Below are positions 1 through 56,131 of a DNA stretch of 57,499 nt, piece after piece. This DNA comes from a virus (taxonomy: Duplodnaviria > Heunggongvirae > Uroviricota > Caudoviricetes). The stretch lies in the IMG/VR virus record IMGVR_UViG_2541047758_000011. The stretch is one strand, 5' to 3'. How positions within the stretch are numbered: the stretch's first letter is position 1; each line of letters begins with the position of its first letter. A program made the translations under genes and the position numbers. The notes below the pieces were generated by a model. It saw nothing but the letters and a program-made list of their open reading frames with translations, had not been told where the DNA came from and did not search any database.

Positions 1-285
1 TCACCGTTAACGCCATACGATAAATGGGATGGTGAGAAATGGGTGACAGACACTGAGGCACAACACAGTGCCGCAGTAGACGCGGCAGAAGCACAGCGCC
101 AGTCACTGATTGATGCAACAATGGCTTCCATTAGTCTGATTCAGTTGAAATTACAGGCCGGACGGAAACTGACTCAGGCAGAAACAACCCGACTTAACGC
201 CGTGCTGGATTACATTGACGCGGTGACGGCAACAGATACCAGCACCGCGCCGGATGTCATCTGGCCTGAACTGTCGGAGGCGTAG
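1..285 (+). CDS. Tail fiber assembly protein, C-terminal part (5' end outside window)
   Basis: Frame 1 reads SPLTPYDKWDGEKWVTDTEAQ... open from base 1; Tfa-like C-terminus ...TSTAPDVIWPELSEA. Confidence 0.7.
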   Translation, partial: SPLTPYDKWDGEKWVTDTEAQHSAAVDAAEAQRQSLIDATMASISLIQLKLQAGRKLTQAETTRLNAVLDYIDAVTATDTSTAPDVIWPELSEA

Positions 286-685
286 GCCATTCAATATCGG
301 GTGCTGTTGACGTATCAACACGCATCAGCAGCACACGGTATTTCTTCCATTGGGTGAGAGTTGTAGCTTCTTCATCAGTTGCGATATCAGCATCAACAGC
401 ATCCTGACGCCAGGATATTTCACTGTCAGCTTTTTCCCGTAATTGGGATTTTTTAACTTCAGCAATAGCTATTAATTCCTTTTTGGTCGGCTGAGGAATA
501 TCTATCAGTGCTGGTTTTCCATTCAGTGTTCCAATCTGTTTTCCTGGTGGAATATCCATAAATAACTTTTTATGTTCTTCCTCACAGACTATTACACCAT
601 CATCAGGCCACAGACCTGATGCCTCAAATTTTTCTTTCTCCGATATGGGGAAAAAGCCATTTGCTTTAGCGCTCCATACGTACAT
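257..685 (-). CDS. Tail fiber assembly protein (Tfa-like, 142 aa)
   Basis: ORF with Tfa-like C-terminus ...RVLLMRVDTSTAPDIEWPTPP; 3' end converges on and overlaps the + strand tfa. Confidence 0.75.
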   Translation of the reverse strand: MYVWSAKANGFFPISEKEKFEASGLWPDDGVIVCEEEHKKLFMDIPPGKQIGTLNGKPALIDIPQPTKKELIAIAEVKKSQLREKADSEISWRQDAVDADIATDEEATTLTQWKKYRVLLMRVDTSTAPDIEWPTPPTVQAR

Positions 686-686
686 A

Positions 687-1337
687 TCAATACCCCACCG
701 CTATAATGTCCACATTAAATCCTCCGGGACCTGCCTGCCAGATGCTGGCCCCTGTTAATGATTTTGTTTGATGAACAACCGCCACATTTGCTGGCGATTG
801 TGTTTCAGTTGTTACAGTACCGATATCATTCCAGTTAATTGAGATGGAATAGTTCGTTGTTGTAAACGACCGGGGGAAAGTTATGTGTCTTACATTGGTG
901 CCAATAGGAAATCCAAGATAAACACGCTGAATTATCATTCCTCCAGGTAACATAACCCAGTTAGCACCTTCTCCCAAACCAAGGTTTTCGAGAGCCGTTT
1001 GCACAGTGCCATCCGATTTGATATCGCCAAACGGATTCTTGCGGCTCAGGTATTCAACAGCAAACCCCGATCCCAGCAATTCAACAAAACCGGGCAGATC
1101 ACCATTATCAAGCACATCCCGTTGCGTTTTATCACTTACAAACTGGGCCAGAGCTGCAGCAATAAAGCTGGCCTGCCGAATAACCTTATTGACTTGCGCA
1201 CTGGATGCTTTCCCTGCTGTAAATCCGGATATAAGCGCAGGCAACGCTTCCCATTCCTCCTGCGACATAACATTGGCATTTCGATCAGTTGCAAACGCTT
1301 TAAAGTCATTTTTCGCCATCAGAGTAATACTCCCCAT
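687..1337 (-). CDS. Tail fiber C-terminal receptor-binding cassette (216 aa, too short for a full fiber)
   Basis: ORF immediately upstream of tfa on same strand; Gly/Thr-rich fibre-tip-like sequence; abuts deletion junction. Confidence 0.55.
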
Positions 1338-1427
1338 GCCCCTACATCAAAACCACTGATGAATTCGTTATCCATATCAAAACCAAAAAATTTAGAGCCT
1401 TCCGATGGAGTTTCCACCGAAGGTGTT

Positions 1428-1742
1428 TCAATGCCCCCCGCCCATACCCCGGCGGCTTTTACTGTTAGATACCGCCAATACCCGTTTCATCGCGGCACTC
1501 TGGCGACACTCCTTAAAAATCAGGTTCGTGCTCATCTTTCCTTCCCGTTCTTCCCTGGTAGCAAACCGGTAATACACCGTTCGCCAGACCTTACCTTCGA
1601 TAACCAGAAGACCTGCCCGTGCCATTTTAGCCGCGGCCTGATTTATGCTGGTTACTGTTGCGCCTGTTAGCGCGGCAACGTCCGGCGCACAGAAGCTATT
1701 ATGCGTCCCCAGGTAATGAATAATTGCCTCTTTGCCCGTCAT
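1428..1742 (-). CDS. ren: Ren protein (lambda ren-like)
   Basis: MTGKEAIIHYLGTHNSFCAPDVAALTGATVTSINQAAAKMARAG... matches lambda Ren from memory; lies directly after P. Confidence 0.8.
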   Translation of the reverse strand: MTGKEAIIHYLGTHNSFCAPDVAALTGATVTSINQAAAKMARAGLLVIEGKVWRTVYYRFATREEREGKMSTNLIFKECRQSAAMKRVLAVSNSKSRRGMGGGH

Positions 1743-2440
1743 ACACTTGCTCCTTTCAGTCCGAACTTAGCTTTGATTTCTGCGATCTTCGCCAGAGCCT
1801 GTGCACGATTTAGAGGTCTACCGCCCATGACAGGAAGTTGTTTTACTGGTTCAGGGATCGCCTCACCACGGTTAATTCTCGCAGTCATATGGACAAGCTC
1901 ATCTGCGGCCTTACGGCGTAATTCCGCATCAGTAAGCGCATTGGCCCGCATGTTCTGATACAGGTTGGTAACCAGCCAGTAGTGCGCGTTTGATTTCCAC
2001 GGATAAGACTCCGCATCCGGATACAGGCCTCGCTTCCGGCAATACTCGTAAACCATATCAACCAGCTCGCTGGCGTTTGGCAGCCCGGCGGTAACGGATG
2101 CTTCTTCCCGGCACCAGGCAACAAACTGCCCGGGTGATGGCAGGAATGGTCGATTCTGCCGACGGGCTACGCGCATTCCAGCGTTAACCTGTTCCATCGT
2201 GGTGATCCCATTTTCCCGGAAAGCCAGAACCCACTGGCGGCGGATTTCGTTCAGTTCATTCTGGTCACGGTTAGCCAGGCTCGCCGGGAAAGTTGCCAGT
2301 AACTGGCTGAACACACCATTGATGATCTGCGCTACCTGTTGTACCTGCGGCTTTTCGTCGTACTGTTCCGGCATGTTGTTGGCGATCCGGCGCATCTGCT
2401 CACGGTCAAAGTTAACCATCTGTGCGGCGATGTTTTTCAT
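1739..2440 (-). CDS. P: Replication protein P (DnaB helicase loader)
   Basis: 233 aa, MKNIAAQMVNFDREQMRRIANNMPEQYDEK... recalled as lambda P; overlaps O stop. Confidence 0.93.
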   Translation of the reverse strand: MKNIAAQMVNFDREQMRRIANNMPEQYDEKPQVQQVAQIINGVFSQLLATFPASLANRDQNELNEIRRQWVLAFRENGITTMEQVNAGMRVARRQNRPFLPSPGQFVAWCREEASVTAGLPNASELVDMVYEYCRKRGLYPDAESYPWKSNAHYWLVTNLYQNMRANALTDAELRRKAADELVHMTARINRGEAIPEPVKQLPVMGGRPLNRAQALAKIAEIKAKFGLKGASV

Positions 2441-3336
2441 AAATCCACCCCGTAAATCCAGTCAGTGTTTGTCAGGTCGAGTTTTGGTTTGCTGGCTGTC
2501 ACGCCTGCCTGTTGCTTGTTACGGTTGATTTCGAGCTGGGTCCACTTGTCGCGGAGTTTGGCCGGACTCAGCACGTTACCGGACCAGAAGTTGTCCTGGC
2601 AGGCCCAGCGGAAAAGCACACACATATCGCGGTGGTTACGTCCGTCACGTTCACGCATCAGGCGGATATCGTTAGCCCACCCAGCAAAATTCGGTTTTCT
2701 GGCTGATGGCGCGATGGTCTTCACCATGTCAAACATCCACTCTGCGGCGGTCAGGTCTTCTGCTGTTCCCCACTTGCTGCCGCTCTGAATTGCAGCATCC
2801 GGTTTAACCACAGAAAGATCGTTTTCTGGCTGGTCAGAGGATTCGCCAGAATTCTCGGACGAATAATCTTTTCTTTTTTCTTTTGTAATAGTGTCTTTTG
2901 TGTCTCCCTGTTTTGAGGGATAGCAATCCCCCAATTTGAGGGATGTTTTATCCCTCGTTTTAGGGGATTTTCCCTCGTTTTGAGGGATACACCATTCTGA
3001 GATGTTTTTATTTGGTCCAAACATGCCGCCTTGCTGCTTGATAATATTCATTCTGACGAGTTCTAACTTGGCTTCATTGCACCGTTTGACAGGTAACTTT
3101 GTAATCTCGCTAAGTTGAGAATCGGTGATTCTGTCCATTGGTTTATTCCACCCATAGGTTTTACGCAGAATGGCAAGCAGCACTTTAAACTGTCGCTTGG
3201 TCAGATCTGCGCCCGAATAAGCCTCAAGCAGCATATTTGATAGTCTGGCGTAACCATCATCGAGATCTGCCACATTACGCTCCTGTCCGGCAAAGTTACC
3301 TCTGCCGAAGTTGAGTATTTTTGCTGTATTTGTCAT
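2437..3336 (-). CDS. O: Replication initiator protein O
   Basis: 299 aa, MTNTAKILNFGRGNFAGQERNVADLDDGYARLSNMLLEAYSG... recalled as lambda O; contains ori iterons. Confidence 0.93.
   Translation of the reverse strand: MTNTAKILNFGRGNFAGQERNVADLDDGYARLSNMLLEAYSGADLTKRQFKVLLAILRKTYGWNKPMDRITDSQLSEITKLPVKRCNEAKLELVRMNIIKQQGGMFGPNKNISEWCIPQNEGKSPKTRDKTSLKLGDCYPSKQGDTKDTITKEKRKDYSSENSGESSDQPENDLSVVKPDAAIQSGSKWGTAEDLTAAEWMFDMVKTIAPSARKPNFAGWANDIRLMRERDGRNHRDMCVLFRWACQDNFWSGNVLSPAKLRDKWTQLEINRNKQQAGVTASKPKLDLTNTDWIYGVDL
2860..2990. repeat. ori-lambda-type iterons (four TCCCTC...GAGGGA-like repeats) plus AT-rich tract inside O
   Basis: Seen directly: tccctgttttgaggga, tcccccaatttgaggga, tccctcgttttagggga, tccctcgttttgaggga next to an A/T-rich stretch. 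Confidence 0.85.
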
Positions 3337-3368
3337 AATGACTCCTGTTGATAGATCCAGTAATGACC

Positions 3369-3662
3369 TCAGAACTCCATCTGGATTTGTTCAGAACGCT
3401 CGGTTGCCGCCGGGCGTTTTTTATTGGTGAGAATCGCAGCAACTTGTCGCGCCAATCGAACCATGTCGTCGTCAACGACCCCCCATTCAAGAACAGCAAG
3501 CAGCATTGAGAACTTTGGAATCCAGTCTCTCTTCCACCTGCTGATCTGCGACTTATCAACTCCCACAGCTTCCGCTGTCTTCTCAGTTCCAAGCATTGCG
3601 ATTTTGTTAAGCAACGCACTCTCGATTCGTAGAGCCTCGTTGCGTTTGTTTGCACGAACCAT
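3369..3662 (-). CDS. cII: Transcriptional activator CII
   Basis: MVRANKRNEALRIESALLNKIAMLGTEKTAEAVGVDKSQISRWKRDWIPKF... recalled as lambda CII (97 aa). Confidence 0.9.
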   Translation of the reverse strand: MVRANKRNEALRIESALLNKIAMLGTEKTAEAVGVDKSQISRWKRDWIPKFSMLLAVLEWGVVDDDMVRLARQVAAILTNKKRPAATERSEQIQMEF

Positions 3663-3781
3663 ATGTAAGTATTTCCTTAGATAACAATTGATTGAATGTA
3701 TGCAAATAAATGCATACACCATAGGTGTGGTTTAATTTGATGCCCTTTTTCAGGGCTGGAATGTGTAAGAGCGGGAATGTC

Positions 3782-3997
3782 TTAAGCGGCTTTGTGTTCC
3801 GGAGGGAACACGTCATCAAGACTGACTTTTGCGCCTAACTTGTTTAGGCATGCAACAAGAGCGCGGCATGTTTTAAGGTCTGGGAAGCGACGACCAGATT
3901 CCCAATGCCCAATAGCTCCCTGTGTGCATCCAACCGCCTTAGCAAGTGTTGTTTGAGAGATATTCAGTGACTCTCGATATTTTCGTAGGTTGCTCAT
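3782..3997 (-). CDS. cro: Cro-like HTH repressor (non-lambda immunity type)
   Basis: 71 aa HTH protein MSNLRKYRESLNISQTTLAKAVGCTQGAIGHWESGRR, divergent from cI. Confidence 0.7.
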   Translation of the reverse strand: MSNLRKYRESLNISQTTLAKAVGCTQGAIGHWESGRRFPDLKTCRALVACLNKLGAKVSLDDVFPPEHKAA

Positions 3998-4108
3998 ATG
4001 CCCTCCATAGTAACCATGAGACAATAATACGATATGTACTTTTGGAATGCAAACAAAAAATACATCTTGTGCATGGATGGTTTTAGTACAGAGCGTAATA
4101 ATAAGGAT

Positions 4109-4768
4109 ATGAAAATGAAATGGTATGAACTGGCTAGATCCAGAATGAAAGAGCTCGGCATAACTCAAGAGAAGTTGGCTGAAGAGCTTGGTATGACGCA
4201 GGGTGGAATTGGTCACTGGTTGCGCGGATCTCGTCATCCATCTCTTGACGAGATTGGTGTGGTGTTTAAATACCTTGGTATTGATAACGTCTCATTCAAC
4301 CACGACGGTACATTTTCACCTGTTGGCGAATACTCATCTGCCCCCGTTAAAAAACAATATGAGTACCCTGTTTTTTCTCATGTTCAGGCCGGGATGTTCT
4401 CGCCTGAGCTTAGAACCTTTACCAAAGGTGATGCGGAGAGATGGGTCAGCACAACCAAAAAAGCCAGTGATTGTGCGTTTTGGCTTGAAGTTGAAGGTAA
4501 TTCCATGACCGCACCAACAGGATCCAAGCCAAGCTTTCCTGACGGGATGTTAATTCTCGTTGACCCTGAGCAGGCTGTTGAGCCAGGTGATTTCTGCATA
4601 GCCAGACTTGGTGGTGACGAGTTTACCTTCAAGAAACTGATCAGGGATAGCGGTCAGGTGTTCCTACAACCACTAAACCCGCAATATCCAATGATCCCAT
4701 GCAATGATAGCTGTTCCGTTGTAGGGAAAGTTATCGCCAGCCAGTGGCCAGAAGAGACGTTTGGGTGA
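4109..4768 (+). CDS. cI: CI-like prophage repressor (HTH N-domain of different immunity, lambda-cI-like S24 C-domain)
   Basis: C-terminal domain matches lambda cI (..[40 protein letters not shown]..) with Ser/Lys dyad intact; N-terminal HTH differs; start chosen at ATG 4109 after AAGGA. Confidence 0.85.
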
Positions 4769-4793
4769 TAGGAATGGATGTTAAGGATTAAGA

Positions 4794-5840
4794 ATGTCAG
4801 CGATTGATCAACCTGCGCAATATGTTATCAAGTCAGAAGACGACTTTGTATCTTTTGTAACAGAAATGCTCGGAAGGAAGGATATCGACTCAAGCGACTT
4901 CACATTCCCTAACGTAGTTTTCAGTGGATGGCCAAAGATCAATATTAATGTAAAAGGCGATCCAAATAGATATAATTCTTCATTGACTGCGTCAATGCTT
5001 TTTGGTATGGCAGAGCTTACGCATGAAATACAAAAAGCATTTACGGTAGTCAGTCACAGCACTCATAATCGGCAGAAGCTAAAAGATGCAGAGAAAGGTT
5101 TGCTGGATATTGTCTACCGAATAAGCGAAGGCTCAAGCCAAGCGGATGGTGACTCAGATCCGATTGTAAACGGAGTGGTGACAGTGTTTACTCAAGCGAT
5201 AGGCAAAATGACAGGAAGGCAAGCACTATGCGCCGTCGCCGCTATCGTCTTAGCTGCCAGCACGGTAGGCTATAAGTGGATCAATGAGTACTACGAAACA
5301 CAGCGACATGACCAAGATTCTCAGGTGCAATTGGTGGAAAAAAGCACCAAAGCGGTAAACGAAGCACAAGACAATGTGCTCAAGTTGTTGATTAGCGGTC
5401 AAACAAACATTAGCAGAGAGGTTCTGGCTCACGGCGAGGATGGTAAAAGCAAGTTGCTTAAAAAGCTTGCTCAAGACTCGTCAGTTGAGAGGGTAACAAT
5501 TGGTCAGAGAGTGGTAAATAGAGAACAGTTGAATACCTTAAACCAAAGACAATCAATTGATCGAAAAAAGGAAACTAGAAGAGATAACTTTTATGTCACG
5601 GGCGTTCGTCGCTCGGGAGAAACAAATCAGGACATAAATATTGACGTCATAAGGGTTTCAAATGGTGAATCTTTCACCATAAAAACCTCAGCCGACATAA
5701 CATCTACTGATGAGCTTCTTGAGTTTTTGAATGCTGTAGCCAAAGAATCAACTGTTGAAATTTCATACCTAGAGGTTGTAGAAAATGGGCACATTTCAAC
5801 AGGGCAATTGATAAATATATTCCCCAGCGAACCAGAGTGA
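4794..5840 (+). CDS. Unknown 348-aa protein at the rexAB position; one hydrophobic segment and a charged C-terminal half
   Basis: Long ORF 25 bp after cI, same strand, followed by hairpin terminator; no similarity to RexA/RexB recognised; AT-rich by inspection. Confidence 0.7.
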   Translation: MSAIDQPAQYVIKSEDDFVSFVTEMLGRKDIDSSDFTFPNVVFSGWPKININVKGDPNRYNSSLTASMLFGMAELTHEIQKAFTVVSHSTHNRQKLKDAEKGLLDIVYRISEGSSQADGDSDPIVNGVVTVFTQAIGKMTGRQALCAVAAIVLAASTVGYKWINEYYETQRHDQDSQVQLVEKSTKAVNEAQDNVLKLLISGQTNISREVLAHGEDGKSKLLKKLAQDSSVERVTIGQRVVNREQLNTLNQRQSIDRKKETRRDNFYVTGVRRSGETNQDINIDVIRVSNGESFTIKTSADITSTDELLEFLNAVAKESTVEISYLEVVENGHISTGQLINIFPSEPE

Positions 5841-5851
5841 TGCACTCCAAA

Positions 5852-5879
5852 CCCGGCCTCAGCGCCGGGTTTTCTTTTT
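5852..5879 (+). terminator. Rho-independent terminator after the cI operon
   Basis: cccggcctcagcgccggg hairpin followed by ttttcttttt. Confidence 0.7.
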
Positions 5880-5944
5880 CCAAAATATAAACCCATTAAA
5901 TACAAAGCGTTATAAAAAACTAATTATATTTAGAACATTTTGTA

Positions 5945-5973
5945 TTGACTCGATAAAGTACAAATCGTACTAT
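5945..5973 (+). promoter_or_regulatory. pL-like promoter (TTGACT, 17 bp, TACTAT)
   Basis: -35 ttgact and -10 tactat with 17-bp spacer upstream of nutL/N. Confidence 0.55.
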
Positions 5974-6013
5974 TTAGCCATCAGCAGGACGCACTGACCA
6001 CCATTGAAGGTGA

Positions 6014-6044
6014 GGCTCTTAAAAATTTAGCCCTGAAGAAGGGC
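6014..6044 (+). promoter_or_regulatory. nutL site (boxA gctcttaaaaatt, boxB gccctgaagaagggc)
   Basis: boxB hairpin GCCCTGAAGAAGGGC recalled as lambda nutL boxB, preceded by boxA-like CGCTCTTAA. Confidence 0.85.
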
Positions 6045-6154
6045 AGCATTCAAAGCAGAAGGCTTTGAGTAGCGCGAAATGCAGCTGCAAGACAGCAACC
6101 GTGGAGATAAGCATCACGGCGCGTTACTCAAAGCTAACTGACAGGAGAATCCAG

Positions 6155-6487
6155 ATGGATGCACAAGCACGCCGCCGCGAACGTCGCGCAGAGAAACAGG
6201 CTCAATGGAAAGCAGCAAATCCCCTGTTGGTTGGGGTAAGCGCAAAACCAGTTAACCGCCCTATTCTCTCGCTGAATCGCAAACCGAAATCACGAGTAGA
6301 AAGCGCACTGAATCCGATAGACCTTACGGTGCTGGCTGAATACCACGAACAGATTGAAAGCAACCTGCAACGTATTGAGCGCAAGAATCAGCGCACATGG
6401 TACAGCAAGCCACGCTGTGAAATGGGTGTGACTTGCTCAGGCCGCCAGAAGCAACGCGGAAAATCAATTCCAGCTTATTACGATTGA
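6155..6487 (+). CDS. N: Antitermination protein N
   Basis: MDAQARRRERRAEKQAQWKAANPLLVGVSAKPVNRPILSLNRKPKSR... arginine-rich motif, lambda N-like. Confidence 0.9.
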   Translation: MDAQARRRERRAEKQAQWKAANPLLVGVSAKPVNRPILSLNRKPKSRVESALNPIDLTVLAEYHEQIESNLQRIERKNQRTWYSKPRCEMGVTCSGRQKQRGKSIPAYYD

Positions 6488-6495
6488 GGTGAGCC

Positions 6496-6633
6496 ATGCT
6501 CAAGAAAGTCAAACGCCGACTTTACAAAGAAGGTAGATATTCATGCCAGTTGCCAAAATGCGACACAACAAAATGGAGTGTCGATGATTGGTGTAACTGG
6601 ATAGATAGATACGGAACTTGGTGGGATAAATAA
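6496..6633 (+). CDS. Small Cys-rich hypothetical protein (45 aa)
   Basis: Short ORF MLKKVKRRLYKEGRYSCQLPKCDTTKWSVDDWCNWIDRYGTWWDK; below the 60-aa ORF track threshold. Confidence 0.3.
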   Translation: MLKKVKRRLYKEGRYSCQLPKCDTTKWSVDDWCNWIDRYGTWWDK

Positions 6634-6757
6634 CAGGTAACTTAAGCGTATTTACTTTCGCAGCAAACAACTTATTTGAGGTGATATATGGAAGAAGAAT
6701 TTGAAGAGTTCGAAGAGCATCCTCAGGATGTGATGGAACAATACCAGGACTATCCGT

Positions 6758-6937
6758 ATGACTACGACTATTGATAAAAATCAATGGTGTGGACAATTCA
6801 AGCGATGCAATGGATGCAAGCTGCAATCGGAATGCATGGTTAAGCCTGAAGAAATGTTTCCTGTAATGGAAGATGGGAAATATGTCGATAAATGGGCAAT
6901 ACGAACGACGGCAATGATTGCCAGAGAACTTGGTTAA
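6758..6937 (+). CDS. ral: Restriction alleviation protein Ral
   Basis: MTTTIDKNQWCGQFKRCNGCKLQSECMVKPEEMFPVMEDGKYVDKWAIRTTAMIARELG recalled as lambda Ral; below ORF track threshold, found by manual translation. Confidence 0.8.
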   Translation: MTTTIDKNQWCGQFKRCNGCKLQSECMVKPEEMFPVMEDGKYVDKWAIRTTAMIARELG

Positions 6938-7094
6938 CAGAACAACAAAGCTGCCTGATAGTGGCCTTTATTTTTGGCATAAATAACAGAATAAACACTG
7001 CACTGTGTATTCATTCCAACGAGTGAATACACGGAGCAATGTCGCTCGTAACTAAACAGGAGCCGACTTGTTCTGATTATTGGAAATCTTCTTC

Positions 7095-7120
7095 GCCCTC
7101 CAGTGTGAGGGCGATTTTTT
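7095..7120 (+). terminator. Rho-independent terminator (gccctccagtgtgagggc + T-run), preceded by a 9-bp perfect inverted repeat at 7005-7032
   Basis: Hairpin plus gatttttt; whole ~125-bp block is repeated at 49441-49562. Confidence 0.65.
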
Positions 7121-7140
7121 ATCTATGAGGATATGAATAG

Positions 7141-7509
7141 ATGTCAAACATCAAAAAATACATCATTGATTACGACTGGAAAGCATCAATAGAAATTGAA
7201 ATCGACCATGACGTAATGACAGAGGAAAAACTTCACCAGATTAATAATTTCTGGTCAGACTCTGAATACCGACTCAATAAACACGGCTCTGTATTAAATG
7301 CTGTATTAATCATGCTGGCGCAACATGCTCTGCTTATAGCAATTTCAAGCGACTTAAATGCATATGGTGTTGTGTGTGAGTTCGACTGGAATGATGGAAA
7401 TGGTCAGGAAGGATGGCCTCCAATGGATGGTAGCGAAGGAATAAGAATTACCGATATCGATACATCAGGAATATTTGATTCAGATGATATGACTATCAAA
7501 GCCGCCTGA
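7141..7509 (+). CDS. ea10: Ea10-like early protein (122 aa)
   Basis: Sits between ral and cIII as lambda ea10 does and has the same length (122 aa). Confidence 0.7.
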   Translation: MSNIKKYIIDYDWKASIEIEIDHDVMTEEKLHQINNFWSDSEYRLNKHGSVLNAVLIMLAQHALLIAISSDLNAYGVVCEFDWNDGNGQEGWPPMDGSEGIRITDIDTSGIFDSDDMTIKAA

Positions 7510-7581
7510 GCGCGGCGTTACCGCATACCAATAACGCTTCACTCGAGGCGTTTTTCGTTATGTATAAATAAGGAGCACACC

Positions 7582-7746
7582 ATGCAATATGCCATTGCAG
7601 GGTGGCCTGTTGCTGGCTGCCCTTCCGAATCTTTACTTGAACGAATCACCCGTAAATTACGTGACGGATGGAAACGCCTTATCGACATACTTAATCAGCC
7701 AGGAGTCCCAAAAAATGGATCAAACACTTATGGCTATCCAGACTAA
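7582..7746 (+). CDS. cIII: CIII protein (FtsH inhibitor)
   Basis: [54 protein letters not shown] recalled as lambda cIII. Confidence 0.9.
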   Translation: MQYAIAGWPVAGCPSESLLERITRKLRDGWKRLIDILNQPGVPKNGSNTYGYPD

Positions 7747-7858
7747 ATTCACTATCGCCACTTTTATTGGCGATGAAAAGATGTTTCGTGAGGCCGTCGA
7801 CGCTTATAAAAAATGGATATTAATACTGAAACTGAGATCAAGCAAAAGCATTCACTAA
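7715..7858 (+). CDS. kil: Kil protein (FtsZ inhibitor)
   Basis: [47 protein letters not shown] recalled as lambda Kil; overlaps cIII 3' end. Confidence 0.85.
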
Positions 7859-8229
7859 CCCCCTTTCCTGTTTTCCTAATCAGCCCGGCATTTCGCGGGC
7901 GATATTTTCACAGCTATTTCAGGAGTTCAGCCATGAACGCTTATTACATTCAGGATCGTCTTGAGGCTCAGAGCTGGACGCGTCACTACCAGCAGATCGC
8001 CCGTGAAGAGAAAGAGGCAGAACTGGCAGACGACATGGAAAAAGGCCTGCCCCAGCACCTGTTTGAATCGCTATGCATCGATCATTTGCAACGCCACGGG
8101 GTCAGCAAAAAAGCCATTACCCGTGCGTTCGATGACGATGTTGAGTTTCAGGAGCGCATGGCAGAACACATCCGGTACATGGTTGAAACCATTGCTCACC
8201 ACCAGGTTGATATTGATTCAGAGGTATAA
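7813..8229 (+). CDS. gam: Gam (RecBCD inhibitor)
   Basis: 138 aa [55 protein letters not shown]... lambda Gam. Confidence 0.93.
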
Positions 8230-8234
8230 AACGG

Positions 8235-9020
8235 ATGAGTACAGCACTCGCAACGCTGGCTGGGAAGCTGGCTGAACGTGTCGGCATGGATTCTGTCGAC
8301 CCACAGGAACTGATCACCACTCTTCGCCAGACGGCATTTAAAGGTGATGCCAGCGATGCGCAGTTCATCGCATTGTTGATCGTCGCCAACCAGTACGGCC
8401 TTAATCCGTGGACGAAAGAAATTTACGCCTTCCCTGACAAGCAGAACGGCATCGTTCCGGTGGTGGGCGTTGATGGCTGGTCCCGCATCATCAATGAAAA
8501 CCAGCAGTTTGATGGCATGGACTTTGAGCAGGACAATGAATCCTGCACATGCCGGATTTACCGCAAAGACCGCAATCATCCGATCTGCGTTACCGAGTGG
8601 ATGGATGAATGCCGCCGCGAACCATTCAAAACCCGCGAAGGCAGAGAAATCACGGGGCCGTGGCAGTCGCATCCCAAACGGATGTTACGGCATAAAGCCA
8701 TGATTCAGTGTGCCCGTCTCGCCTTCGGATTTGCTGGTATCTATGACAAGGATGAAGCCGAGCGCATTGTCGAAAATACCGCATACACTGCAGAACGTCA
8801 GCCGGAACGCGACATCACTCCGGTTAACGATGAAACCATGCAGGAGATTAACACTCTGCTGATTGCCCTGGATAAAACATGGGATGACGACTTATTGCCG
8901 CTCTGTTCCCAGATATTTCGCCGCGACATTCGCGCATCGTCAGAACTGACACAGGCCGAAGCAGTGAAAGCTCTTGGATTCCTGAAACAGAAAGCCACTG
9001 AGCAGAAGGTGGCAGCATGA
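8235..9020 (+). CDS. bet: Bet (Red-beta ssDNA annealing protein)
   Basis: 261 aa [59 protein letters not shown]... lambda Bet. Confidence 0.95.
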
Positions 9021-9697
9021 CACCGGACATTATACTGCAGCGTACCGGGATCGACGTGAGAGCTGTCGAACAGGGGGATGATGCATGGCACAAATTACGG
9101 CTCGGCGTCATCACCGCTTCAGAAGTTCACAACGTGATAGCAAAGCCCCGATCAGGAAAGAAGTGGCCTGACATGAAAATGTCCTACTTCCACACCCTGC
9201 TGGCTGAGGTTTGCACCGGTGTGGCTCCGGAAGTTAACGCTAAAGCGCTGGCCTGGGGAAAACAGTACGAGAACGACGCCAGAACCCTGTTTGAGTTCAC
9301 TTCCGGCGTAAATGTTATTGAATCCCCGATCATCTATCGCGACGAAAGTATGCGCACCGCCTGCTCTCCCGATGGTTTATGCAGTGACGGCAATGGCCTT
9401 GAGCTGAAATGCCCGTTTACCTCCCGGGATTTCATGAAGTTCCGGCTCGGTGGTTTCGAGGCCATAAAGTCGGCTTACATGGCCCAGGTGCAGTACAGCA
9501 TGTGGGTGACGCGAAAAGATGCCTGGTACTTTGCCAACTATGACCCGCGTATGAAGCGTGAAGGCCTGCATTATGTCGTGGTTGAGCGGGATGAAAAGTA
9601 CATGGCGAGTTTTGACGAGATGGTGCCGGAGTTCATCGAAAAAATGGACGAGGCACTGGCTGAAATTGGTTTTGCATTTGGGGAGCAATGGCGATGA
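9017..9697 (+). CDS. exo: Lambda exonuclease (Red-alpha)
   Basis: 226 aa [65 protein letters not shown]... lambda Exo. Confidence 0.95.
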
Positions 9698-9855
9698 AGC
9701 ATCCTCACGATAATATCCGGGTAGGCACGATCACTTTCGTCTACTCCGTTACAAAGCGAGGCTGGGTATTTCCCGGCCTTTCTGTTATCCGAAATCCCCT
9801 GAAAGCACAGCGGCTGGCTGAGGAGATAAATAATAAACGGGGGCTGTATGACTGA
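9694..9855 (+). CDS. Small hypothetical protein (53 aa) overlapping exo stop
   Basis: ATG at 9694; [31 protein letters not shown]...; not in ORF track. Confidence 0.35.
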
Positions 9856-10405
9856 TTTCACCGGAAGCAATACTCCTGCCGAACATCGCGACAGCTGGCG
9901 CACACCACCAGAGATTTTTGCTGCGCTTAATGCAGAGTTCGTTTTTCAACTTGATGCTGCCGCCAGCGAAAAAAACCGACTATGTCGGCTTTTTATCTCA
10001 CAGGAGCAGAACACATTAACCACTTCATGGCCTGAAGCAATGGGATATGCCTCTGGTTATGTCTGGTTGAATCCACCATACAGCAATATTTCCCCTTTTG
10101 TGAAAAAGGCAGCCACTGAAAACAAATTCAGTAGTGTGGGATGTGTAATGTTATTGCCTGCTGACACATCTGTCGGATGGTTTCATGAAGCGATACAAAC
10201 CGCCAGTGAGGTCAGATTCATCACGGCAGGACGACTGGCATTTATTAACCCACTCACTGAGAAACCCGTCAGTGGAAATAATAAAGGCTCGATGCTCATT
10301 ATCTGGCACCCATACCCCCGTACACACTGCCACTTTACGACCGTTGATCGTGGAGAGTTGATGGCGTTCGGCTCAAGGATTCTTGCCCGTCGGGAGGCTG
10401 CATGA
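9848..10405 (+). CDS. Phage N6-adenine DNA methyltransferase (Dam-like, NPPY motif)
   Basis: 185 aa with ...YVWLNPPYSNISPF... motif IV typical of N6-adenine MTases; no adjacent restriction endonuclease seen. Confidence 0.75.
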   Translation: MTDFTGSNTPAEHRDSWRTPPEIFAALNAEFVFQLDAAASEKNRLCRLFISQEQNTLTTSWPEAMGYASGYVWLNPPYSNISPFVKKAATENKFSSVGCVMLLPADTSVGWFHEAIQTASEVRFITAGRLAFINPLTEKPVSGNNKGSMLIIWHPYPRTHCHFTTVDRGELMAFGSRILARREAA

Positions 10406-10481
10406 CAACCACGGAATGCATTTTTCTGGCAGCGGGCTTCATATTCTGTGTGCTTATGCTTGCCGACATGGGACTTGTTCA

Positions 10482-10697
10482 ATGACACCTCAGCAGGAAA
10501 ACGCCCTTCGCAGCATTGCCCGTCAGGCTAATTCTGAAATCAAAAAAGCCAGACAGCAGTTTCCGGATAAAAACGTCGATGACATTTGCCGTAGCGTACT
10601 AAAGAAGCACCGCGAAACGGTAACGCTGATGGGATTCACACCGACTCATTTAAGCCTGGCGATCGGCATGTTAAACGGCGTCTTTAAGGAACGGTGA
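10482..10697 (+). CDS. Hypothetical protein (71 aa)
   Basis: ORF from ATG 10482 (MTPQQENALRSIARQANSEIKKARQQ...). Confidence 0.45.
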   Translation: MTPQQENALRSIARQANSEIKKARQQFPDKNVDDICRSVLKKHRETVTLMGFTPTHLSLAIGMLNGVFKER

Positions 10698-10795
10698 ACA
10701 TGAAAAGCAAAATCATCAGGGAGCTACAGGCTCCTTTTTTATTGTTCGCATTCATCCTCAAGCGTATTAACCAACAATTCAGGGATTAATGGAAG

Positions 10796-11014
10796 ATGGC
10801 AGACATCATTGATTCAGCATCAGAAATCGAAGAATTACAGCGCAATACAGCAATAAAAATGCGTCGTCTGAACCACCAGGCTATATCTGCCACTCATTGT
10901 TGTAAGTGTGGCGATCCCATAGATGAACGAAGACGCCTGGCCGTTCAGGGTTGTCGGACTTGTGCAAGTTGCCAGGAGGAGATCGAACTTAAGAACAAAC
11001 AATGGGGATTGTGA
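10796..11014 (+). CDS. TraR/DksA-family C4 zinc-finger protein
   Basis: 72 aa with CxxC...CxxC (HCCKCGDPIDERRRLAVQGCRTCASCQ) typical of DksA/TraR fold. Confidence 0.7.
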   Translation: MADIIDSASEIEELQRNTAIKMRRLNHQAISATHCCKCGDPIDERRRLAVQGCRTCASCQEEIELKNKQWGL

Positions 11015-11061
11015 TGGCCTCAAAGCAGCAAATTTCAACATCGTCCAACTGAGGTGTAAAA

Positions 11062-11340
11062 ATGTTCAGAATCATTTTTCCTAACACCTGGTACGTCGAC
11101 CACCACGGCACTCCCTGCAAAATCCTGCGTTCTACCCACAACAAAGTTCACTACATCCGAAAAGGCAGAACATGTATCGCCAGCATGTTCCGCTTTAATC
11201 ATGACTTTGAACCTGTGAATAAAGCTGATGCAGATCGGATAGCAGAAGAGATCGAAACGGCAGAACACATTAAGAAGTTACGTGACATGCGTTCAAAAAG
11301 CAGAGGTAACCATGGAATCATACAGCCTCACACTCGATGA
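11062..11340 (+). CDS. Hypothetical protein (92 aa)
   Basis: ORF upstream of xis; no recognised motif. Confidence 0.4.
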   Translation: MFRIIFPNTWYVDHHGTPCKILRSTHNKVHYIRKGRTCIASMFRFNHDFEPVNKADADRIAEEIETAEHIKKLRDMRSKSRGNHGIIQPHTR

Positions 11341-11662
11341 GGCCTGTCAGTTTCTTAAGATATCCAGACCAACCGCCACCAACTGGATACGAACAGGCCG
11401 CCTACAGGCAACACGCAAAGACCCCACTAAACCAAAATCTCCTTACCTCACAACGCGACAAGCCTGCATTGCGGCGCTTCAGTCTCCGCTGCATACTATC
11501 AAGGTGAGCGCGGGTGATGGCATAACAGAGGAAAGAAAATGTCACTCTTCCGCAGAAGTGAAATATGGTACGCCAGTTTCACATTGCCGAACGGTAAAAG
11601 ATTTAAACAGTCTCTTGGAACAAAGGACAAAAGGCAGGCGACAGAGCTCCATGACAAGCTAA
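11312..11662 (+). CDS. xis: Excisionase-like protein (Xis), overlapping int start by 124 nt
   Basis: [45 protein letters not shown]... HTH directly upstream of int; ORF stays open into int. Confidence 0.55.
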
Positions 11663-12702
11663 AGGCTGAAGCATGGCGGGTCAGCAAACTTGGTGAAATA
11701 CCTGATATGACGTTCGAGGAGGCGTGTATCAGGTGGCTCGAAGAGAAAGCACATAAAAAATCACTGGACGATGACAAAAGCCGGATCGGATTCTGGCTTC
11801 AACATTTCGCAGGAATGCAACTAAGAGACATTACTGAATCAAAAATTTATTCAGCAATGCAGAAAATGACGAACCGGCGTCATGAGGAAAACTGGAAACT
11901 CAGGGCAGAAGCATGCAGAAAAAAAGGGAAACCTGTTCCAGAATACACGCCAAAACCAGCGTCCGTTGCAACGAAGGCTACGCATCTTTCATTTATAAAG
12001 GCCCTACTAAGAGCCGCAGAGCGTGAATGGAAAATGCTGGATAAGGCACCAATTATTAAAGTGCCTCAACCAAAGAATAAACGGATCCGCTGGCTGGAGC
12101 CCCATGAAGCACAAAGGCTGATTGATGAATGTCCGGAGCCATTAAAGTCTGTTGTTGAATTTGCACTGGCAACAGGTTTAAGACGCTCGAACATCATCAA
12201 CCTTGAATGGCAACAAATAGATATGCAGCGCCGGGTGGCATGGATAAACCCGGAAGAGAGTAAATCAAACCGCGCAATCGGCGTTGCGCTGAATGATACT
12301 GCATGTCGCGTTTTGAAAAAACAAATCGGGAATCATCACCGTTGGGTATTTGTGTACAAGGAAAGCTGTACCAAACCAGACGGAACGAAAGCGCCAACAG
12401 TAAGGAAGATGCGGTATGACGCAAACACAGCCTGGAAAGCGGCGCTGAGACGAGCTGGTATTGATGATTTCAGATTTCACGACTTGAGACACACCTGGGC
12501 AAGTTGGCTGGTTCAAGCCGGAGTCCCGTTGTCAGTGTTACAGGAAATGGGTGGCTGGGAGTCTATCGAAATGGTTCGTCGATATGCTCACCTCGCGCCT
12601 AATCACCTTACCGAACACGCACGGCAAATAGACTCGATTCTGAACCCATCGGTCCCAAATTTGTCCCAGTCAAAAAATAAGGAAGGTACTAATGATGTGT
12701 AA
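11539..12702 (+). CDS. int: Tyrosine integrase (prophage A)
   Basis: 387 aa with C-terminal catalytic region ...[42 protein letters not shown]; stop 14 bp before tRNA 3' fragment. Confidence 0.9.
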
Positions 12703-12762
12703 CTTATTGATTTAAATGGTGCCGATAATAGGAGTCGAACCTACGACCTTCGCATTACGAAT
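12699..12762. repeat. 64-bp att core direct repeat (copy 1), identical to 56038-56101; includes 46-nt 3' fragment of tRNA-Thr (12717-12762)
   Basis: gtaacttattgatttaaatggtgccgataataggagtcgaacctacgaccttcgcattacgaat is present at both positions by direct comparison. Confidence 0.9.
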
Positions 12763-13091
12763 CTGTAGAACCAATCATAACTATCTGTTTTAGCAAGCAT
12801 TAACCGCATTCACCAAGCAATAGTTGATGGCACAAACAGAAAGTTGATGCATGATGTTGTCATGTGTATGTCACAAATACGGCACAACGATCTTCAAACA
12901 TGTAGCCACCCAGCATAGAAGAGCACAAATCCTTGCAATCCAGTGCAAAGCTTTGTGTACCTTAGTTTTGTCTCATAGGTAATTCTGCTTTAACTGCGAT
13001 GCAGGAATCTGTCACCAGACGCACGTCTCGTTGTTTTATGGTTTTCCGTTCATGATTAATATGTTAGCTTGTCAAAGTTTGTGTTTAAGAT

Positions 13092-13763
13092 ATGGTGATT
13101 GATGCAATGTTAAGCGTTCAGATGACTCCACAAGCAAAAGTTAGCTTCGAGGAGCAATGTTTTTTTCATGCTTCATGTCTTGTTGTTGCCCCAATAAATG
13201 TTGGAGCATTCTCCTACTTTGGCGCTAATTGTATGCTCGGCGGCTTTACGATGGGTAGATTTTGTTCAGTTGCTCCAGGAGTAAAAATTGGCCTTGGCGA
13301 GCATGAAACTGGGTATTTTTCTACGCATCCTTTTTTCTTTGGATCAAAAAATGGTTTTAAAATCCCTGATGGTATAGGAATGCAGCGCGACCTCTCTCAA
13401 CAGAAGCATGGTATACCAAGAATTGGTCATGACGTATGGATAGGTGCAAATGCGGTTATCAGGCGAGGTATAACTATTGGTACTGGCGCTGTTATTGCTG
13501 CTGGCGCTATTGTCACCAAAAATGTCGAGCCATATTCAATCGTAGGTGGCGTTTCTGCAAAACACCTAGGGTACAGATTTGATGAATCAATCATCAAAGA
13601 GTTACTGGATAGCCAATGGTGGGAATATGATTTAAGCTCATTTATTGGGATTGATACAAGGACACCGACGACTTTTTTAGAGCAGTTTAATGCTGTAAAA
13701 GATAAAAAGAAGGCATCTTATAAGAGATTTACAATTCTTCCATCCGGTGAAATTGTTGAATAG
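13092..13763 (+). CDS. Hexapeptide-repeat (left-handed beta-helix) acetyltransferase, xenobiotic/CatB-Vat-like
   Basis: 223 aa with XAT-like blocks: [25 protein letters not shown] and [43 protein letters not shown]; AT-rich gene between attL and tailspike. Confidence 0.75.
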
Positions 13764-13782
13764 CGCATCCCTGCGCTATATT

Positions 13783-16149
13783 TTAAATAAACATAAGAAT
13801 AAACATCAGAAGTTCTTCGTATCTGATGCCATACTGATAGCCAGCAGGTTTAATAATAACCTGCCTTCCTGTGTAATATTCCTCGTCGTACCACTCTCCT
13901 GTTTCATTGTTTTTAACACTCCTAATCAATACCTCTGGAGCATAAATATCATCCCATTCATCATAACACCAGAACGCATAGTTATTAGGGTCAAGACCGT
14001 ATTTTCTGAGAATATTACCTACAGTTTGTGCACCAACGCCGAAATGAATCCGAGCGCCATCACTCTTGATCTTTACTGCATCTTTAAATTTAAACCTCCA
14101 GATATTTTCCTTTATTTCAAGCGCAGCAAGACGCTCTGATTCTGTTGTTTTCTCGTCAGCCTTAATACGCAATTTAAGCTCTTCATTCGACGTGTTGATA
14201 CTGCCAGTACCAGCGTATACCTGTGACCATCGAAATGCTGATGTTCCGTTTGAGTTAACATTATCAACAGTTGGTTTTATAAGGCCAGAAAAATGAGTTT
14301 CAGGTGTATTAATATATGTATATGCACCTGCTGTACTACGAGTCCTTAACTCAAAGCTGTCTATATCAACACCAGTCCTACGAATTATAAGGAAGTTATT
14401 TCCTGCGGAACCAGTATCGGTTTGAGTGCTAACAGACAATCCGTTTCGTGTATCAATACGTATATTCTTCCCGTTCTCCAGCGAAGCAGAATTATGTAGA
14501 TACAGCGAGTTGTCAGTGTAGAGATTGTGTTTACCTACATTGCTAAATGTATAAGTATTGCTTGTGTTATCACTGTTCCTATGGAATTGCTGAAGAGTGT
14601 AGGCAGAAGATGCTCCGTATCCATCACAATGGAAATTTCTGCACAGCTGCAAATCGAATAACAATACGGTGTCAGCATTAATGCTCACATTATTAAAGCA
14701 TGTTGCAAAGTTGGCACCATACTGTGAATTGGAATCGCCAATCTGTGCGCACACATCAAGCAAACCAAAAGTTACATTGGTAAAGTTATTTGCATCACCG
14801 GCGTCAAGAACAATCCCTTTCTTAGTCCCTGAATACCCTCTGGCAGTGCCGATCTCAACTCCCTGGAATGAACACACGCGAGCACGACTAAGCTTAAGAC
14901 CAACCCATTCCAGACCATGATCGTAACCTTTTGCTGCGCGGTGAATAAACATACCATTCATGATGAGAAGGAATCTGTTATCCAGCCGTACTGGTTCAAG
15001 TTGGGCATTAATACCAACATTTGTGCATATACATTCACCATAAGCATAACGATTCGTTTCAAATATACGATCATCAGCGTCGTAAATGCCTCGTAATGCC
15101 TTGGCGGCATCAATATTAAGCAATGTAAAATATGTCTTCTGCTTAATTTCAAAAAAATTTGCAACATTATGCGTTGTGATATCACTCACACGCATTGATA
15201 AAATCCCCTCTTCTGGAGCGGTGCGAATGAATCCATCAAGGAACTGTTCATTATAACTTTTGGCTATCTGATAACATCCAACAGCATCAATGCGTTCGAT
15301 TGTGAATTGCCAACTATCACCGCAGTTAAAATTCCATTTCCAGCCGTATTTCTGTGCAAATTCATCATATTCAACATTTGCAGTCTCAGAACAGAAAGAT
15401 AAAAATCTAAATGTTGGTTTTGGCCTTAGATGGTTAAGCCCGGCACCTCTTGGGGTATATATGGCATTATCTCCATTCCCACCTTTTGTTTTAACTGTAA
15501 GGTGACTTAAACCAAATTCAATATCATATTTTGTTGGTGCAGCGAAAACAAAGCCGTCTTTTGGTGATGTGGTATTGTCAAACACAATAACCGTTTCACC
15601 CTGCCCATCACCGTACATATTTACTGGTGGTATATTAACGGGGCCAGTCAAACTATATGTTCCAGTTGGCACATATAGTTTTCCACCCTCTCCAATAGCA
15701 TTTGCTGCTGCAATAAATGCCACCGTATCATCGTTAACACCGTCACCTTTCGCCCCATAATGCTGTGGCGTAATTAACAGCATACGGTCAGAAAAAATCT
15801 CTGTCCTAAGTTGATCAGGATCGTATTTTAATACATTTGGAAAATAAAACTGCTGAGTGCCATATGCATCATATACAGCCATAGAATGGCCTTTCACAGT
15901 TACGAATTTGGCAATCTGCCCGTTATATACAGGATACCCGCCAGCGTTAATGATGATTGGCTGTGCAACAGGAACGTGAGAACCATCCTCATTCTCTACA
16001 TAAACCTGAATCTGGTTTTCAGGATTTACCGGGTCAGTGTCAATTTTACCGATATAAATTTTGCCATTGGCTACGGCTTTAAAAGAACGCGCCATAGTGA
16101 AGAGTTGCGAAGGCATACTCACTACAACATTGGCTGTAATGTCTGTCAT
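13783..16149 (-). CDS. Tailspike protein (P22 gp9-type N-terminal head-binding domain, divergent beta-helix domain, C-terminal chaperone-like region)
   Basis: N-terminus [46 protein letters not shown] matches P22 tailspike head-binding domain; [14 protein letters not shown] pectate-lyase-like motif; rest unlike P22. Confidence 0.85.
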
Positions 16150-16995: not shown

Positions 16996-17067
16996 TGAAG
17001 TGGTTTACTGAATTTGGCCACCTGAACAGAGGTGATATGCTCACCTCAGAACAACACAGGTGCCATA

Positions 17068-18215
<1,148 letters not shown>

Positions 18216-18245
18216 CTCGGTGGCCAGTTTTTGTTGACCACTTCA

Positions 18246-18756
18246 ATTCTATTGCCGGAAGAGGTATTGCATTAAAACCAACGAGCGGGTTGATTATACT
18301 TGCTGCCGCTGTCTGCTTTGCCTCAGGCGCAAGATTTGGCATCAGATCGAACAGATTGGTAACAGCTTCAACCGTCATTTTCAATGTTCGCGCTTGACGA
18401 TACTCAACAAGTCCACTCGCTGATTTACCGCTTTTAATGTGCGCTTCTTGCATACTTTCAAGTTGGTCTACCAGTGAGCGGCGAACGGCTTTTGACTCGC
18501 GAGCGGCAACTCGCAATGCTTGCTTGATTGACATCTCAATGATAACCATCGAAGTTTTGTTCGCTTTTTGCACTACACTTTTTGTGTAGTGCTCTCCATC
18601 CAATTCATCTTCAATTTTCTCGATGAATTTGTTATTACGAACCTCCGGCTCACCGCACTGTCTACGAGCCTGATTTACCATCTCAAGCAGGCGCTGGCTG
18701 TCAATGGTTTTATCCGTGACAACGGATCCGATGTTTGCTACATTCTTAAAAGTCAT
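18246..18756 (-). pseudogene. N-terminal fragment of Rha/antirepressor-like regulatory gene interrupted by IS911
   Basis: ORF MTFKNVANIGSVVTDKTIDSQRLLEMVNQARRQCGEPEVRNNKFIEKI... runs into IS911 right end; family call is tentative. Confidence 0.4.
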
Positions 18757-38522: not shown

Positions 38523-38598
38523 TGGTGCTGGTTAACGGACTTGAACCGCTACCCATTCGCTTACAAGACGACTGCTCTACCATTAGAGCTAAACCAGC
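38523..38598 (-). tRNA. Phage tRNA-like gene, anticodon read as UGU (Thr); one mismatch in anticodon stem
   Basis: Manual fold: 7-bp acceptor stem (GCTGGTT/AACCAGC), D-arm GCTC/GAGC, T-loop TTCAAGT, discriminator A + CCA; anticodon loop CTTGTAA. Confidence 0.5.
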
Positions 38599-38603
38599 AT
38601 GTT

Positions 38604-38678
38604 TGGCGGGACAGCGTGGACTCGAACCACGATAAGAAGGTTAACAGCCTTCCGTAATGACCTTTATACGACTGACCC
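38604..38678 (-). tRNA. Phage tRNA-like gene, anticodon read as GUU (Asn); atypical D-arm
   Basis: Manual fold: T-arm CGTGG-TTCGAGT-CCACG, anticodon stem GAAGG/CCTTC with loop CTGTTAA, 3' ...GCCA; acceptor 6/7 pairs, D-stem 3/4. Confidence 0.45.
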
Positions 38679-43409: not shown

Positions 43410-44659
<1,250 letters not shown>

Positions 44660-56041: not shown

Positions 56042-56101
56042 CTTATTGATTTAAATGGTGCCGATAATAGGAGTCGAACCTACGACCTTCGCATTACGAA
56101 T
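56038..56101. repeat. 64-bp att core direct repeat (copy 2), spanning int stop, spacer and 3' 46 nt of tRNA-Thr
   Basis: Identical to 12699-12762 by direct comparison. Confidence 0.9.
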
Positions 56102-56131
56102 GCGCTGCTCTACCAACTGAGCTATATCGGC
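56056..56131 (-). tRNA. thrW: tRNA-Thr (anticodon CGU)
   Basis: Reverse complement GCCGATATAGCTCAGTTGGTAGAGCAGCGCATTCGTAATGCGAAGGTCGTAGGTTCGACTCCTATTATCGGCACCA folds as canonical cloverleaf; matches E. coli thrW from memory. Confidence 0.9.

Follow-up and report, generated by a model that had tools for sequence, protein, structure and literature searches.

Why does a P22-like prophage of Escherichia coli carry, next to its tailspike gene, an acetyltransferase whose fold is that of the antibiotic-modifying CatB and Vat enzymes? The question is raised by IMG/VR virus record IMGVR_UViG_2541047758_000011, a stretch of 57,499 nucleotides (the window), in which a hexapeptide acetyltransferase gene of the xenobiotic acetyltransferase (XAT) type, hereafter AcT, converges on a tailspike gene inside a 43-kb P22-like prophage. 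The answer that we favour, and regard as reasonably probable, is that AcT is a lysogenic-conversion glycan O-acetyltransferase coupled to the receptor of the neighbouring tailspike. The following features define the region.

13092 to 13763, plus strand: AcT, an XAT-fold hexapeptide acetyltransferase of 223 amino acids from the ATG at 13092, or 218 amino acids from the start at 13107 that is called by the Prokaryotic Genome Annotation Pipeline (PGAP).

13783 to 16149, minus strand: the tailspike gene, encoding 788 amino acids.

13760 to 13779, no strand assigned: a GC-rich, terminator-like hairpin between the convergent stop codons of AcT and the tailspike gene, common to both.

The original prediction for this locus had described the two genes as divergently transcribed; they are convergent, with a stop-to-stop gap of 19 bp across which the hairpin is shared.

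AcT is inherited with the body of the tailspike, not with an integrase or an attachment (att) site. An intact AcT open reading frame (ORF), with 98.6-99.4% nucleotide identity, is carried by 10 of 5426 complete E. coli genome records, which represent nine distinct strains, as 2018-10-1CC and TBU0218_10-1CC are identical assemblies. The AcT-tailspike pair lies at thrW in this window and in strain GF43, at the torT-torS site in GF4, A10 and AVS0578, at dacD in LSC52 and beside another integrase in TUM9803, and it is also present in the free phage-order record phage_14408_1 (circular-order record L002). In an IMG/VR contig (L018), an intact AcT accompanies the same body, which there bears a non-P22 adaptor instead of the P22 head-binding domain. 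The convergent pair is also kept at much greater distance, namely in contigs L020 and L021 (58% identity for AcT, 67-68% for the body) and in L015 (57% and 63%, respectively), where the adaptor is PF18668. Moreover, strain NRZ14408 has a second prophage of a different type (L011), in which the same body (95% identity; 97% at the DNA level) forms part of a spike encoded beside holin and GH19 lysin genes. Next to this body, at positions 8781-9033 of L011, lies a decayed remnant of the 3' part of AcT, about 250 bp long, roughly 70% identical and interrupted by stop codons. The persistence of the pairing across deep divergence and different virion types argues for a functional AcT-body pair.

A different explanation of this linkage is that AcT acetylates a glycan other than that of the neighbouring tailspike, serving as a general moron against other phages or affecting antigenicity, and that both genes merely share a recombination-prone end. 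Against this stands the conservation of the convergent arrangement at 57-68% identity in at least three further contigs with different adaptors, for which position alone is an unlikely explanation, as well as the transfer of an AcT remnant together with the body into another prophage type. On the other hand, relatives of AcT are found alongside quite different tail fibres (P2-type, and a fibre with a SASA domain), and one body homologue is paired with a different gene. This homologue (L016, 67% identity) belongs to a siphovirus-type prophage of an enterobacterial genus other than Escherichia, with trpBA about 82% identical to that of E. coli at the nucleotide level. In the stead of AcT, it has a 323-codon ORF (L016, 8539-9510) convergent with the body, with sub-threshold matches to alpha/beta-hydrolase and TPR domains; its product may be another modifying enzyme that occupies this slot. 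Given these observations and the host data presented below, which also speak in its favour, we consider action on another glycan unlikely.

The tailspike itself is a chimera of three parts.

15811 to 16149, minus strand: P22-type head-binding domain, amino acids 1-113 (Pfam Head_binding, PF09008, E 1.2e-66).

14320 to 15777, minus strand: right-handed beta-helix body, approximately amino acids 125-610, a putative glycan-cleaving receptor-binding domain.

13786 to 14187, minus strand: C-terminal intramolecular chaperone, amino acids 655-788, preceded by an S654-x4-K659 motif.

This is the architecture that had been proposed from the DNA alone: a P22 gp9-type head-binding domain, a different beta-helix body with a GDGVNDDT motif and a C-terminal region resembling intramolecular chaperones were each borne out. 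In a PDB sequence search, the N-terminal domain matched those of Sf6 gp14 and P22 gp9 (E 1e-44 to 1e-64). These matches end at residue ~120, and a P22 gp9 endorhamnosidase body was rejected on that ground. The GDGVNDDT motif comprises residues 135-142 (15724-15747) of the body and falls within a match to Pect-lyase_RHGA_epim (PF12708; residues 130-196, E 6.5e-10) that is confined to the family's N-terminal cap. An AlphaFold model built with 30 sequences (mean predicted local distance difference test score, pLDDT, 79.6; above 90 over most of residues 160-500) shows a right-handed beta-helix from residue ~130 to ~600. Foldseek matches of the model comprised Sf6, P22, Geobacillus virus E2 ORF18, WceF, CBA120 TSP3, phi29 gp12 and AlgE4.

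The body was assigned to PHROG 1171. At the DNA level, no deposited phage record shares it, and at the protein level its sole relative in a named phage is that of Escherichia phage PSK1 (57% identity over 97% of the body), on which a literature search yielded nothing usable. In a large protein database, homologues of the body are joined to no fewer than four kinds of N-terminal adaptor (PF09008, PF18668, PF12571 and PF03906), indicating that the body is a mobile receptor-binding module. As for the C-terminus, residues 611-785 match the chaperone structures 7y5s (E 1e-18), T5 pb1 4uw8 (E 1e-13) and endosialidase 3gw6 (E 9e-10), and Peptidase_S74 (PF13884) scores 19.8 bits, just below the cut-off of 22. 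The motif S654-NEEL-K659, whose serine is conserved to at least 90%, lies at the position where such chaperone domains self-cleave; its spacing of serine and lysine is that of the autocleavage motif known from endosialidases. The chaperone is thus predicted to be cleaved off once the trimer has assembled.

AcT had been called CatB/Vat-like, which proved correct for fold and catalytic histidine but not for family membership. Pfam Hexapep repeats were found in the protein (ACETYLTRANSFERASE, E 6.5e-12). The top 50 Foldseek matches of its AlphaFold 2 model (pLDDT 95.8, predicted template modelling score 0.90) are all CatB/Vat/XAT entries, the nearest being CatB, VatA, VatD and PaXAT with template modelling scores of ~0.5-0.57. 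The best PDB matches are likewise CatB and Vat enzymes (E 1e-20 to 3e-26), alignable only from residue 47 on and 30-41% identical across ~130-160 core residues, the N-terminal 47 residues being unalignable. H66, S72, D109-V110-W111, Y143, R157-F158 and W171 (218-residue numbering) are invariant in 52 relatives of AcT, and the catalytic histidine H66 aligns with the catalytic-motif histidine of 6pu9 (GHRTDWVSTFPF). A His/Trp pair is the hallmark of left-handed beta-helix (LbetaH) enzymes that use acetyl-CoA (PMC3046976). Conserved catalytic residues and fold together indicate that AcT is a competent XAT-fold acetyltransferase, and its model allows us to assign it with confidence to the XAT subfamily of LbetaH acyltransferases. 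No acyltransferase-3 (AT3) match was found in AcT with Pfam, and the model is that of a soluble LbetaH protein.

With respect to family, AcT scores 97.8 bits against the CatB equivalog NF000490 (cut-off 350) and 99.7 bits against the Vat model NF000311 (cut-off 300), that is, less than a third of either cut-off. Judged by these scores, AcT is outside the CatB and Vat resistance equivalogs. Its best NCBIfam match is TIGR03308, a phosphonate-metabolism hexapeptide transferase, with 120 bits versus a cut-off of 201.65. Its PHROG, phrog_16087, is annotated as of unknown function, and no homologue above 48% identity was found in deposited phage genomes. A literature search retrieved no paper tying XAT or 'CatB-related' enzymes to prophage tailspikes.

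AcT might nevertheless serve to inactivate chloramphenicol or streptogramin A-type compounds as a genuine xenobiotic acetyltransferase, and hence be a prophage-borne resistance gene. The closest structures and top named families are indeed CatB and Vat, whose XAT fold and catalytic histidine are conserved in AcT, and Vat genes do occur on Streptococcus suis phages, with 35-39% identity to AcT. Apart from the low equivalog scores and an identity confined to the core, the N-terminal part, which helps to shape the acceptor site in XAT enzymes, cannot be aligned with CatB or Vat. In addition, the closest relatives of AcT (50-66% identity) reside in capsule loci and tail-fibre neighbourhoods rather than in resistance contexts, and tight pairing with a tailspike body would have no rationale for a drug-resistance gene. 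We therefore deem a resistance function very improbable. The preference of the original prediction for a conversion enzyme over a drug-resistance enzyme is in line with the genomic context, namely the co-inherited pair, the capsule and tail-fibre relatives and the sub-cut-off scores.

The settings of these relatives were inspected individually. Capsule loci of group-2 type, which encode KpsM/T, KpsC/S and KpsD/E, house three of them, P0004 (58%), P0010 (52%) and P0017 (52%); one of these loci also contains genes for synthesis of 3-deoxy-D-manno-octulosonic acid (Kdo). Such XAT-like genes of kps region 2, which are found in E. coli O15:H12 strain 2273-PO3 and elsewhere and are 52-58% identical to AcT, are its closest non-phage relatives. 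They adjoin a protein of ~1170 residues with Capsule_synth (beta-Kdo transferase-like) and HAD matches as well as KpsC/S/D/E/M/T; they differ from AcT in being chromosomal biosynthesis genes. P0003 (63%) is located at the edge of a prophage, next to genes for P2-type tail fibres, and the neighbours of P0016 (50%, Pseudomonas putida) are a lambda-type gpJ and a fibre with a SASA domain. The O88 O-antigen cluster, too, contains an XAT-like gene, though a more distant one. All settings examined have to do with surface glycans or with receptor-binding proteins of phages, and none with drug resistance. Known capsule O-acetyltransferases are LbetaH or alpha/beta-hydrolase enzymes (PMC7387560).

Two of these settings deserve description in their own right. 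The kps locus of 2273-PO3 (L042), in which the P0010 type is found, encodes a 231-residue XAT-like acetyltransferase next to a protein of 1172 residues that matches Capsule_synth and HAD; a third protein, of 609 residues, weakly matches a beta-helix. The locus may specify a Kdo-containing K antigen of undescribed genetics. In L007 and L009, from P. putida and a metagenomic capsule locus, the relatives of AcT are each accompanied by a 382-residue TPR protein and a SASA-domain protein. SASA is a sialate O-acetylesterase-like domain, which in P. putida is situated in a putative tail fibre of 645 residues. Its presence next to an AcT relative would place acetyl-adding and acetyl-removing functions together.

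The same settings bear on the possibility that AcT acts on a non-glycan substrate in the cytoplasm (a metabolite, a nucleotide sugar pool or a protein), for instance in metabolism or anti-defence, or is silent cargo. The uninformative PHROG annotation and the phosphonate-metabolism family as best NCBIfam match, albeit well under its cut-off, would be compatible with such a role, as would two alleles with a frameshifting T-run (see below). However, the ORF is intact and conserved in all 10 complete genome records (nine strains), the catalytic residues are invariant, and every context examined is glycan- or receptor-related. In our estimation, a non-glycan substrate or silent cargo is quite improbable.

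Returning to conversion as the favoured role, AcT has the layout of a separable cassette.

12999 to 13773, plus strand: AcT moron cassette, 775 bp, 40.6% GC, with CTGCG at both junctions.

13069 to 13096, plus strand: weak promoter-like site, TTGTCA-16-TATGGT, 9 of 12 consensus matches.

13160 to 13166, plus strand: run of seven T residues (T7) within the AcT ORF; six (T6) in strains GF4 and A10 (2 of 11 alleles, of different haplotypes).

The cassette boundaries are those of the segment missing from a prophage of strain 2018-10-1CC, which is otherwise 98% identical, has a tailspike body of 98.9% identity and lacks exactly window positions 12999-13773. AcT had been described as AT-rich. Its cassette is indeed poorer in GC than the remainder of the prophage (47.6%), but this is not special to AcT, as the whole tailspike gene has a GC content of 38-41%. 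The T6 allele puts the ATG at 13157 in frame, with an AGGAG upstream (13150-13154), and PGAP calls a 201-residue protein from it. This product is without the conserved N-terminal strand, and the T7 run is missing in more distant AcT homologues. The T7/T6 difference could reflect on/off or isoform switching through slippage, or else a sequencing error in the homopolymer.

Among known systems, the original prediction had singled out NeuO of phage CUS-3, an analogy that stands for position and falls for homology. NeuO is a phage-borne, phase-variable LbetaH enzyme that acts on polysialic acid and has catalytic His and Trp residues (PMC3046976). In the CUS-3 record, neuO is flanked by int and the gene for the endosialidase tailspike; like NeuO, AcT is a soluble LbetaH enzyme of the acetyl-CoA type, encoded in the slot between tailspike and int/att of a P22-like prophage. 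The tailspikes share their head-binding domain (72% identity) and chaperone (31%, E 5e-14) but not the body. At the level of the enzymes, tblastn of AcT against CUS-3 gave a chance match only (E 8), and PDB entry 3jqy matches AcT over no more than a 46-residue hexapeptide stretch (E 9e-5). Homology of AcT to NeuO/OatWY was rejected for lack of tblastn similarity. Furthermore, AcT belongs to the XAT subfamily and is without the heptanucleotide poly-psi repeat, and it is convergent with its tailspike gene whereas neuO is co-directional. Since the tailspike body is not an endosialidase, the target of AcT would not be polysialic acid.

Compared with CatB/PaXAT and Vat, AcT shares fold, catalytic core and catalytic histidine and differs in its N-terminal 47 residues, its C-terminal tail and its context of phage receptors and capsules. 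The role expected of it resembles that of Sf6 Oac and the phage D3 and Salmonella OafA-type enzymes, that is, O-acetylation of surface polysaccharide by a prophage gene near the tailspike/att end (PMC13123978). The two kinds of enzyme are unlike in predicted topology, AcT being predicted to be a soluble cytoplasmic LbetaH enzyme. Oac-type enzymes are integral-membrane acyltransferase-3 proteins that act on the periplasmic side.

Which glycan could be involved was approached through the hosts, six of which were typed via the PGAP annotation of their rfb loci; a literature search on strain serotypes yielded nothing usable. Strain 2018-10-1CC is O154, NRZ14408 and Br_112_kylling are O7, LSC52 and A10 belong to the O17/O44/O73/O77/O106 group, and GF4 is O21. 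Relative to the window, the tailspike bodies of the O154, O21 and O77-group hosts have identities of at least 98.8%, and the O7 alleles identities of 95-97%. Colanic-acid clusters, present in most E. coli, were found in all four strains read (2018-10-1CC, NRZ14408, LSC52 and GF4).

Several observations weigh against AcT as a conversion enzyme matched to the receptor of its tailspike. A single shared host O antigen was rejected, as the six typed hosts have four unrelated clusters. A group-2 capsule as common receptor is likewise unsupported: in 2018-10-1CC, the interval from yghD to pheV, in which kps is usually located, is empty. Nor do the hosts share the capsule type of an AcT relative, a candidate that was rejected because the region 2 of L042 is present in 1 of 5426 complete genomes, which is not among the hosts of the AcT prophage, and E. 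coli lacks the metagenomic version. Three E. coli strains have the body without an intact AcT. In NRZ14408, the P22-like prophage with AcT coexists with the prophage of another type that has the same body and an AcT remnant only. Strain 2018-10-1CC contains an intact P22-like prophage without AcT at dacD and, at torT-torS, a degraded P22-like remnant in which an intact AcT is kept beside a tailspike gene truncated by IS1 (L043, 9001-11339). Two elements with the same body in one strain are an awkward fit to simple superinfection exclusion by AcT. As to the proteins and their expression, Foldseek returned generic tailspikes and beta-helix enzymes only and no substrate-specific structural neighbour for the tailspike, and a promoter scan gave fewer sites than shuffled sequences did, so that the promoter call for AcT is weak.

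The diversity of host O types and the strains that hold two elements with the same body are also the points in favour of AcT acting on some glycan other than that of its neighbour. With the lack of a kps locus in 2018-10-1CC, the diverse O types make a single O antigen or group-2 capsule unlikely as the common target. As a caveat, O loci and tailspike modules both recombine, and the present host type need not equal the type that was infected. The repeated acquisition of the same body in one strain suggests a host-specific receptor. It is conceivable, although on balance we doubt it, that the AcT-body module acts on a glycan other than the serogroup O antigen or a group-2 capsule, candidates being enterobacterial common antigen, colanic acid and a polymer not yet recognised. 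In a variant of this reading, AcT would create or tune the receptor instead of destroying it. This would explain the near-identical bodies across O7, O21, O154 and O17/O77-group hosts, and also why strains holding AcT tend to gain a second element with the same body.

In the model that we favour, the region would constitute the receptor module of the 43-kb P22-like prophage in thrW. Its tailspike would combine a P22 virion-attachment domain with a foreign glycan-binding, probably glycan-cleaving beta-helix and an autocleaving chaperone. AcT, the last gene before the att site and convergent on the 3' end of the tailspike gene, lies in a self-contained moron cassette, and its product is predicted to be a soluble, trimeric, acetyl-CoA-dependent LbetaH O-acetyltransferase of the XAT subfamily. 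Expressed in the lysogen, the enzyme would acetylate a sugar of a surface polysaccharide on the cytoplasmic side, the acceptor presumably being a lipid-linked repeat unit or a polymer assembled there. This would alter the glycan used by the co-inherited tailspike body, possibly also that used by competing phages, and the outcome would be lysogenic conversion of the NeuO/CUS-3 type brought about by a non-homologous enzyme.

The prophage that carries this module is one of two elements integrated in tandem at thrW in the window, delimited as follows.

12699 to 12762, no strand assigned: att core copy, an exact 64-bp repeat of 56038-56101, containing the 3' 45 nucleotides of the tRNA-Thr(CGU) gene thrW.

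56038 to 56131, minus strand: span of the second att copy (56038-56101) inside the intact tRNA-Thr(CGU) gene thrW (56056-56131, minus strand).

54881 to 56041, plus strand: integrase gene of the P22-like prophage, at the opposite end from AcT and abutting the intact thrW tRNA gene.

The P22-like prophage occupies the interval between the two 64-bp copies, and the copy at 12699-12762 is at once its int-distal end and the int-proximal end of the neighbouring element. The AcT ORF begins 330 bp downstream of this copy. AcT is thus adjacent to an att site, as had been stated, but the label attL does not hold: the prophage's own int (54881-56041) lies at the thrW end, so that the AcT-side copy is attR by the lambda convention. 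The left neighbour is a second lambdoid element (1-12762) that extends past the left edge of the window. Its int (11539-12702) is 55% identical to that of the P22-like prophage, and both genes end within the same 64-bp repeat; two different integrases thus appear to share one site.

Inside the P22-like prophage, an IS3-family insertion sequence is present as two 100%-identical inverted copies (~17001-18247 and 43408-44654; orfA 17032-17370, orfB 17397-18215), one in the immI/antirepressor region just past the tailspike gene and the other in the early region. In view of these two copies the prophage is probably crippled, and the inverted pair could mediate inversion. Genes for tRNA-Thr(UGU) and tRNA-Asn(GUU) lie between the lysis and Q regions (38523-38678), the same place as in phage_14408_1.

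The concept of polysaccharide acetylation by prophages is already established by work on Klebsiella, in which predicted acetyltransferase genes were noted in 5-30% of the prophages per K-locus and prophages have been suggested as drivers of polysaccharide acetylation (PMC13123978). Acetylation of surface polysaccharides by phage-borne enzymes changes serotype, phage susceptibility and vaccine epitopes while going unseen by O- and K-locus typing. The AcT family, annotated as 'CatB-related', could readily be miscalled as antibiotic resistance in prophage or resistome surveys, against which its context argues. The poor agreement with host O types suggests that the receptor is yet to be identified, and the pair formed by AcT and its tailspike body offers a ready test system for the co-evolution of tailspikes and glycan-modifying enzymes.

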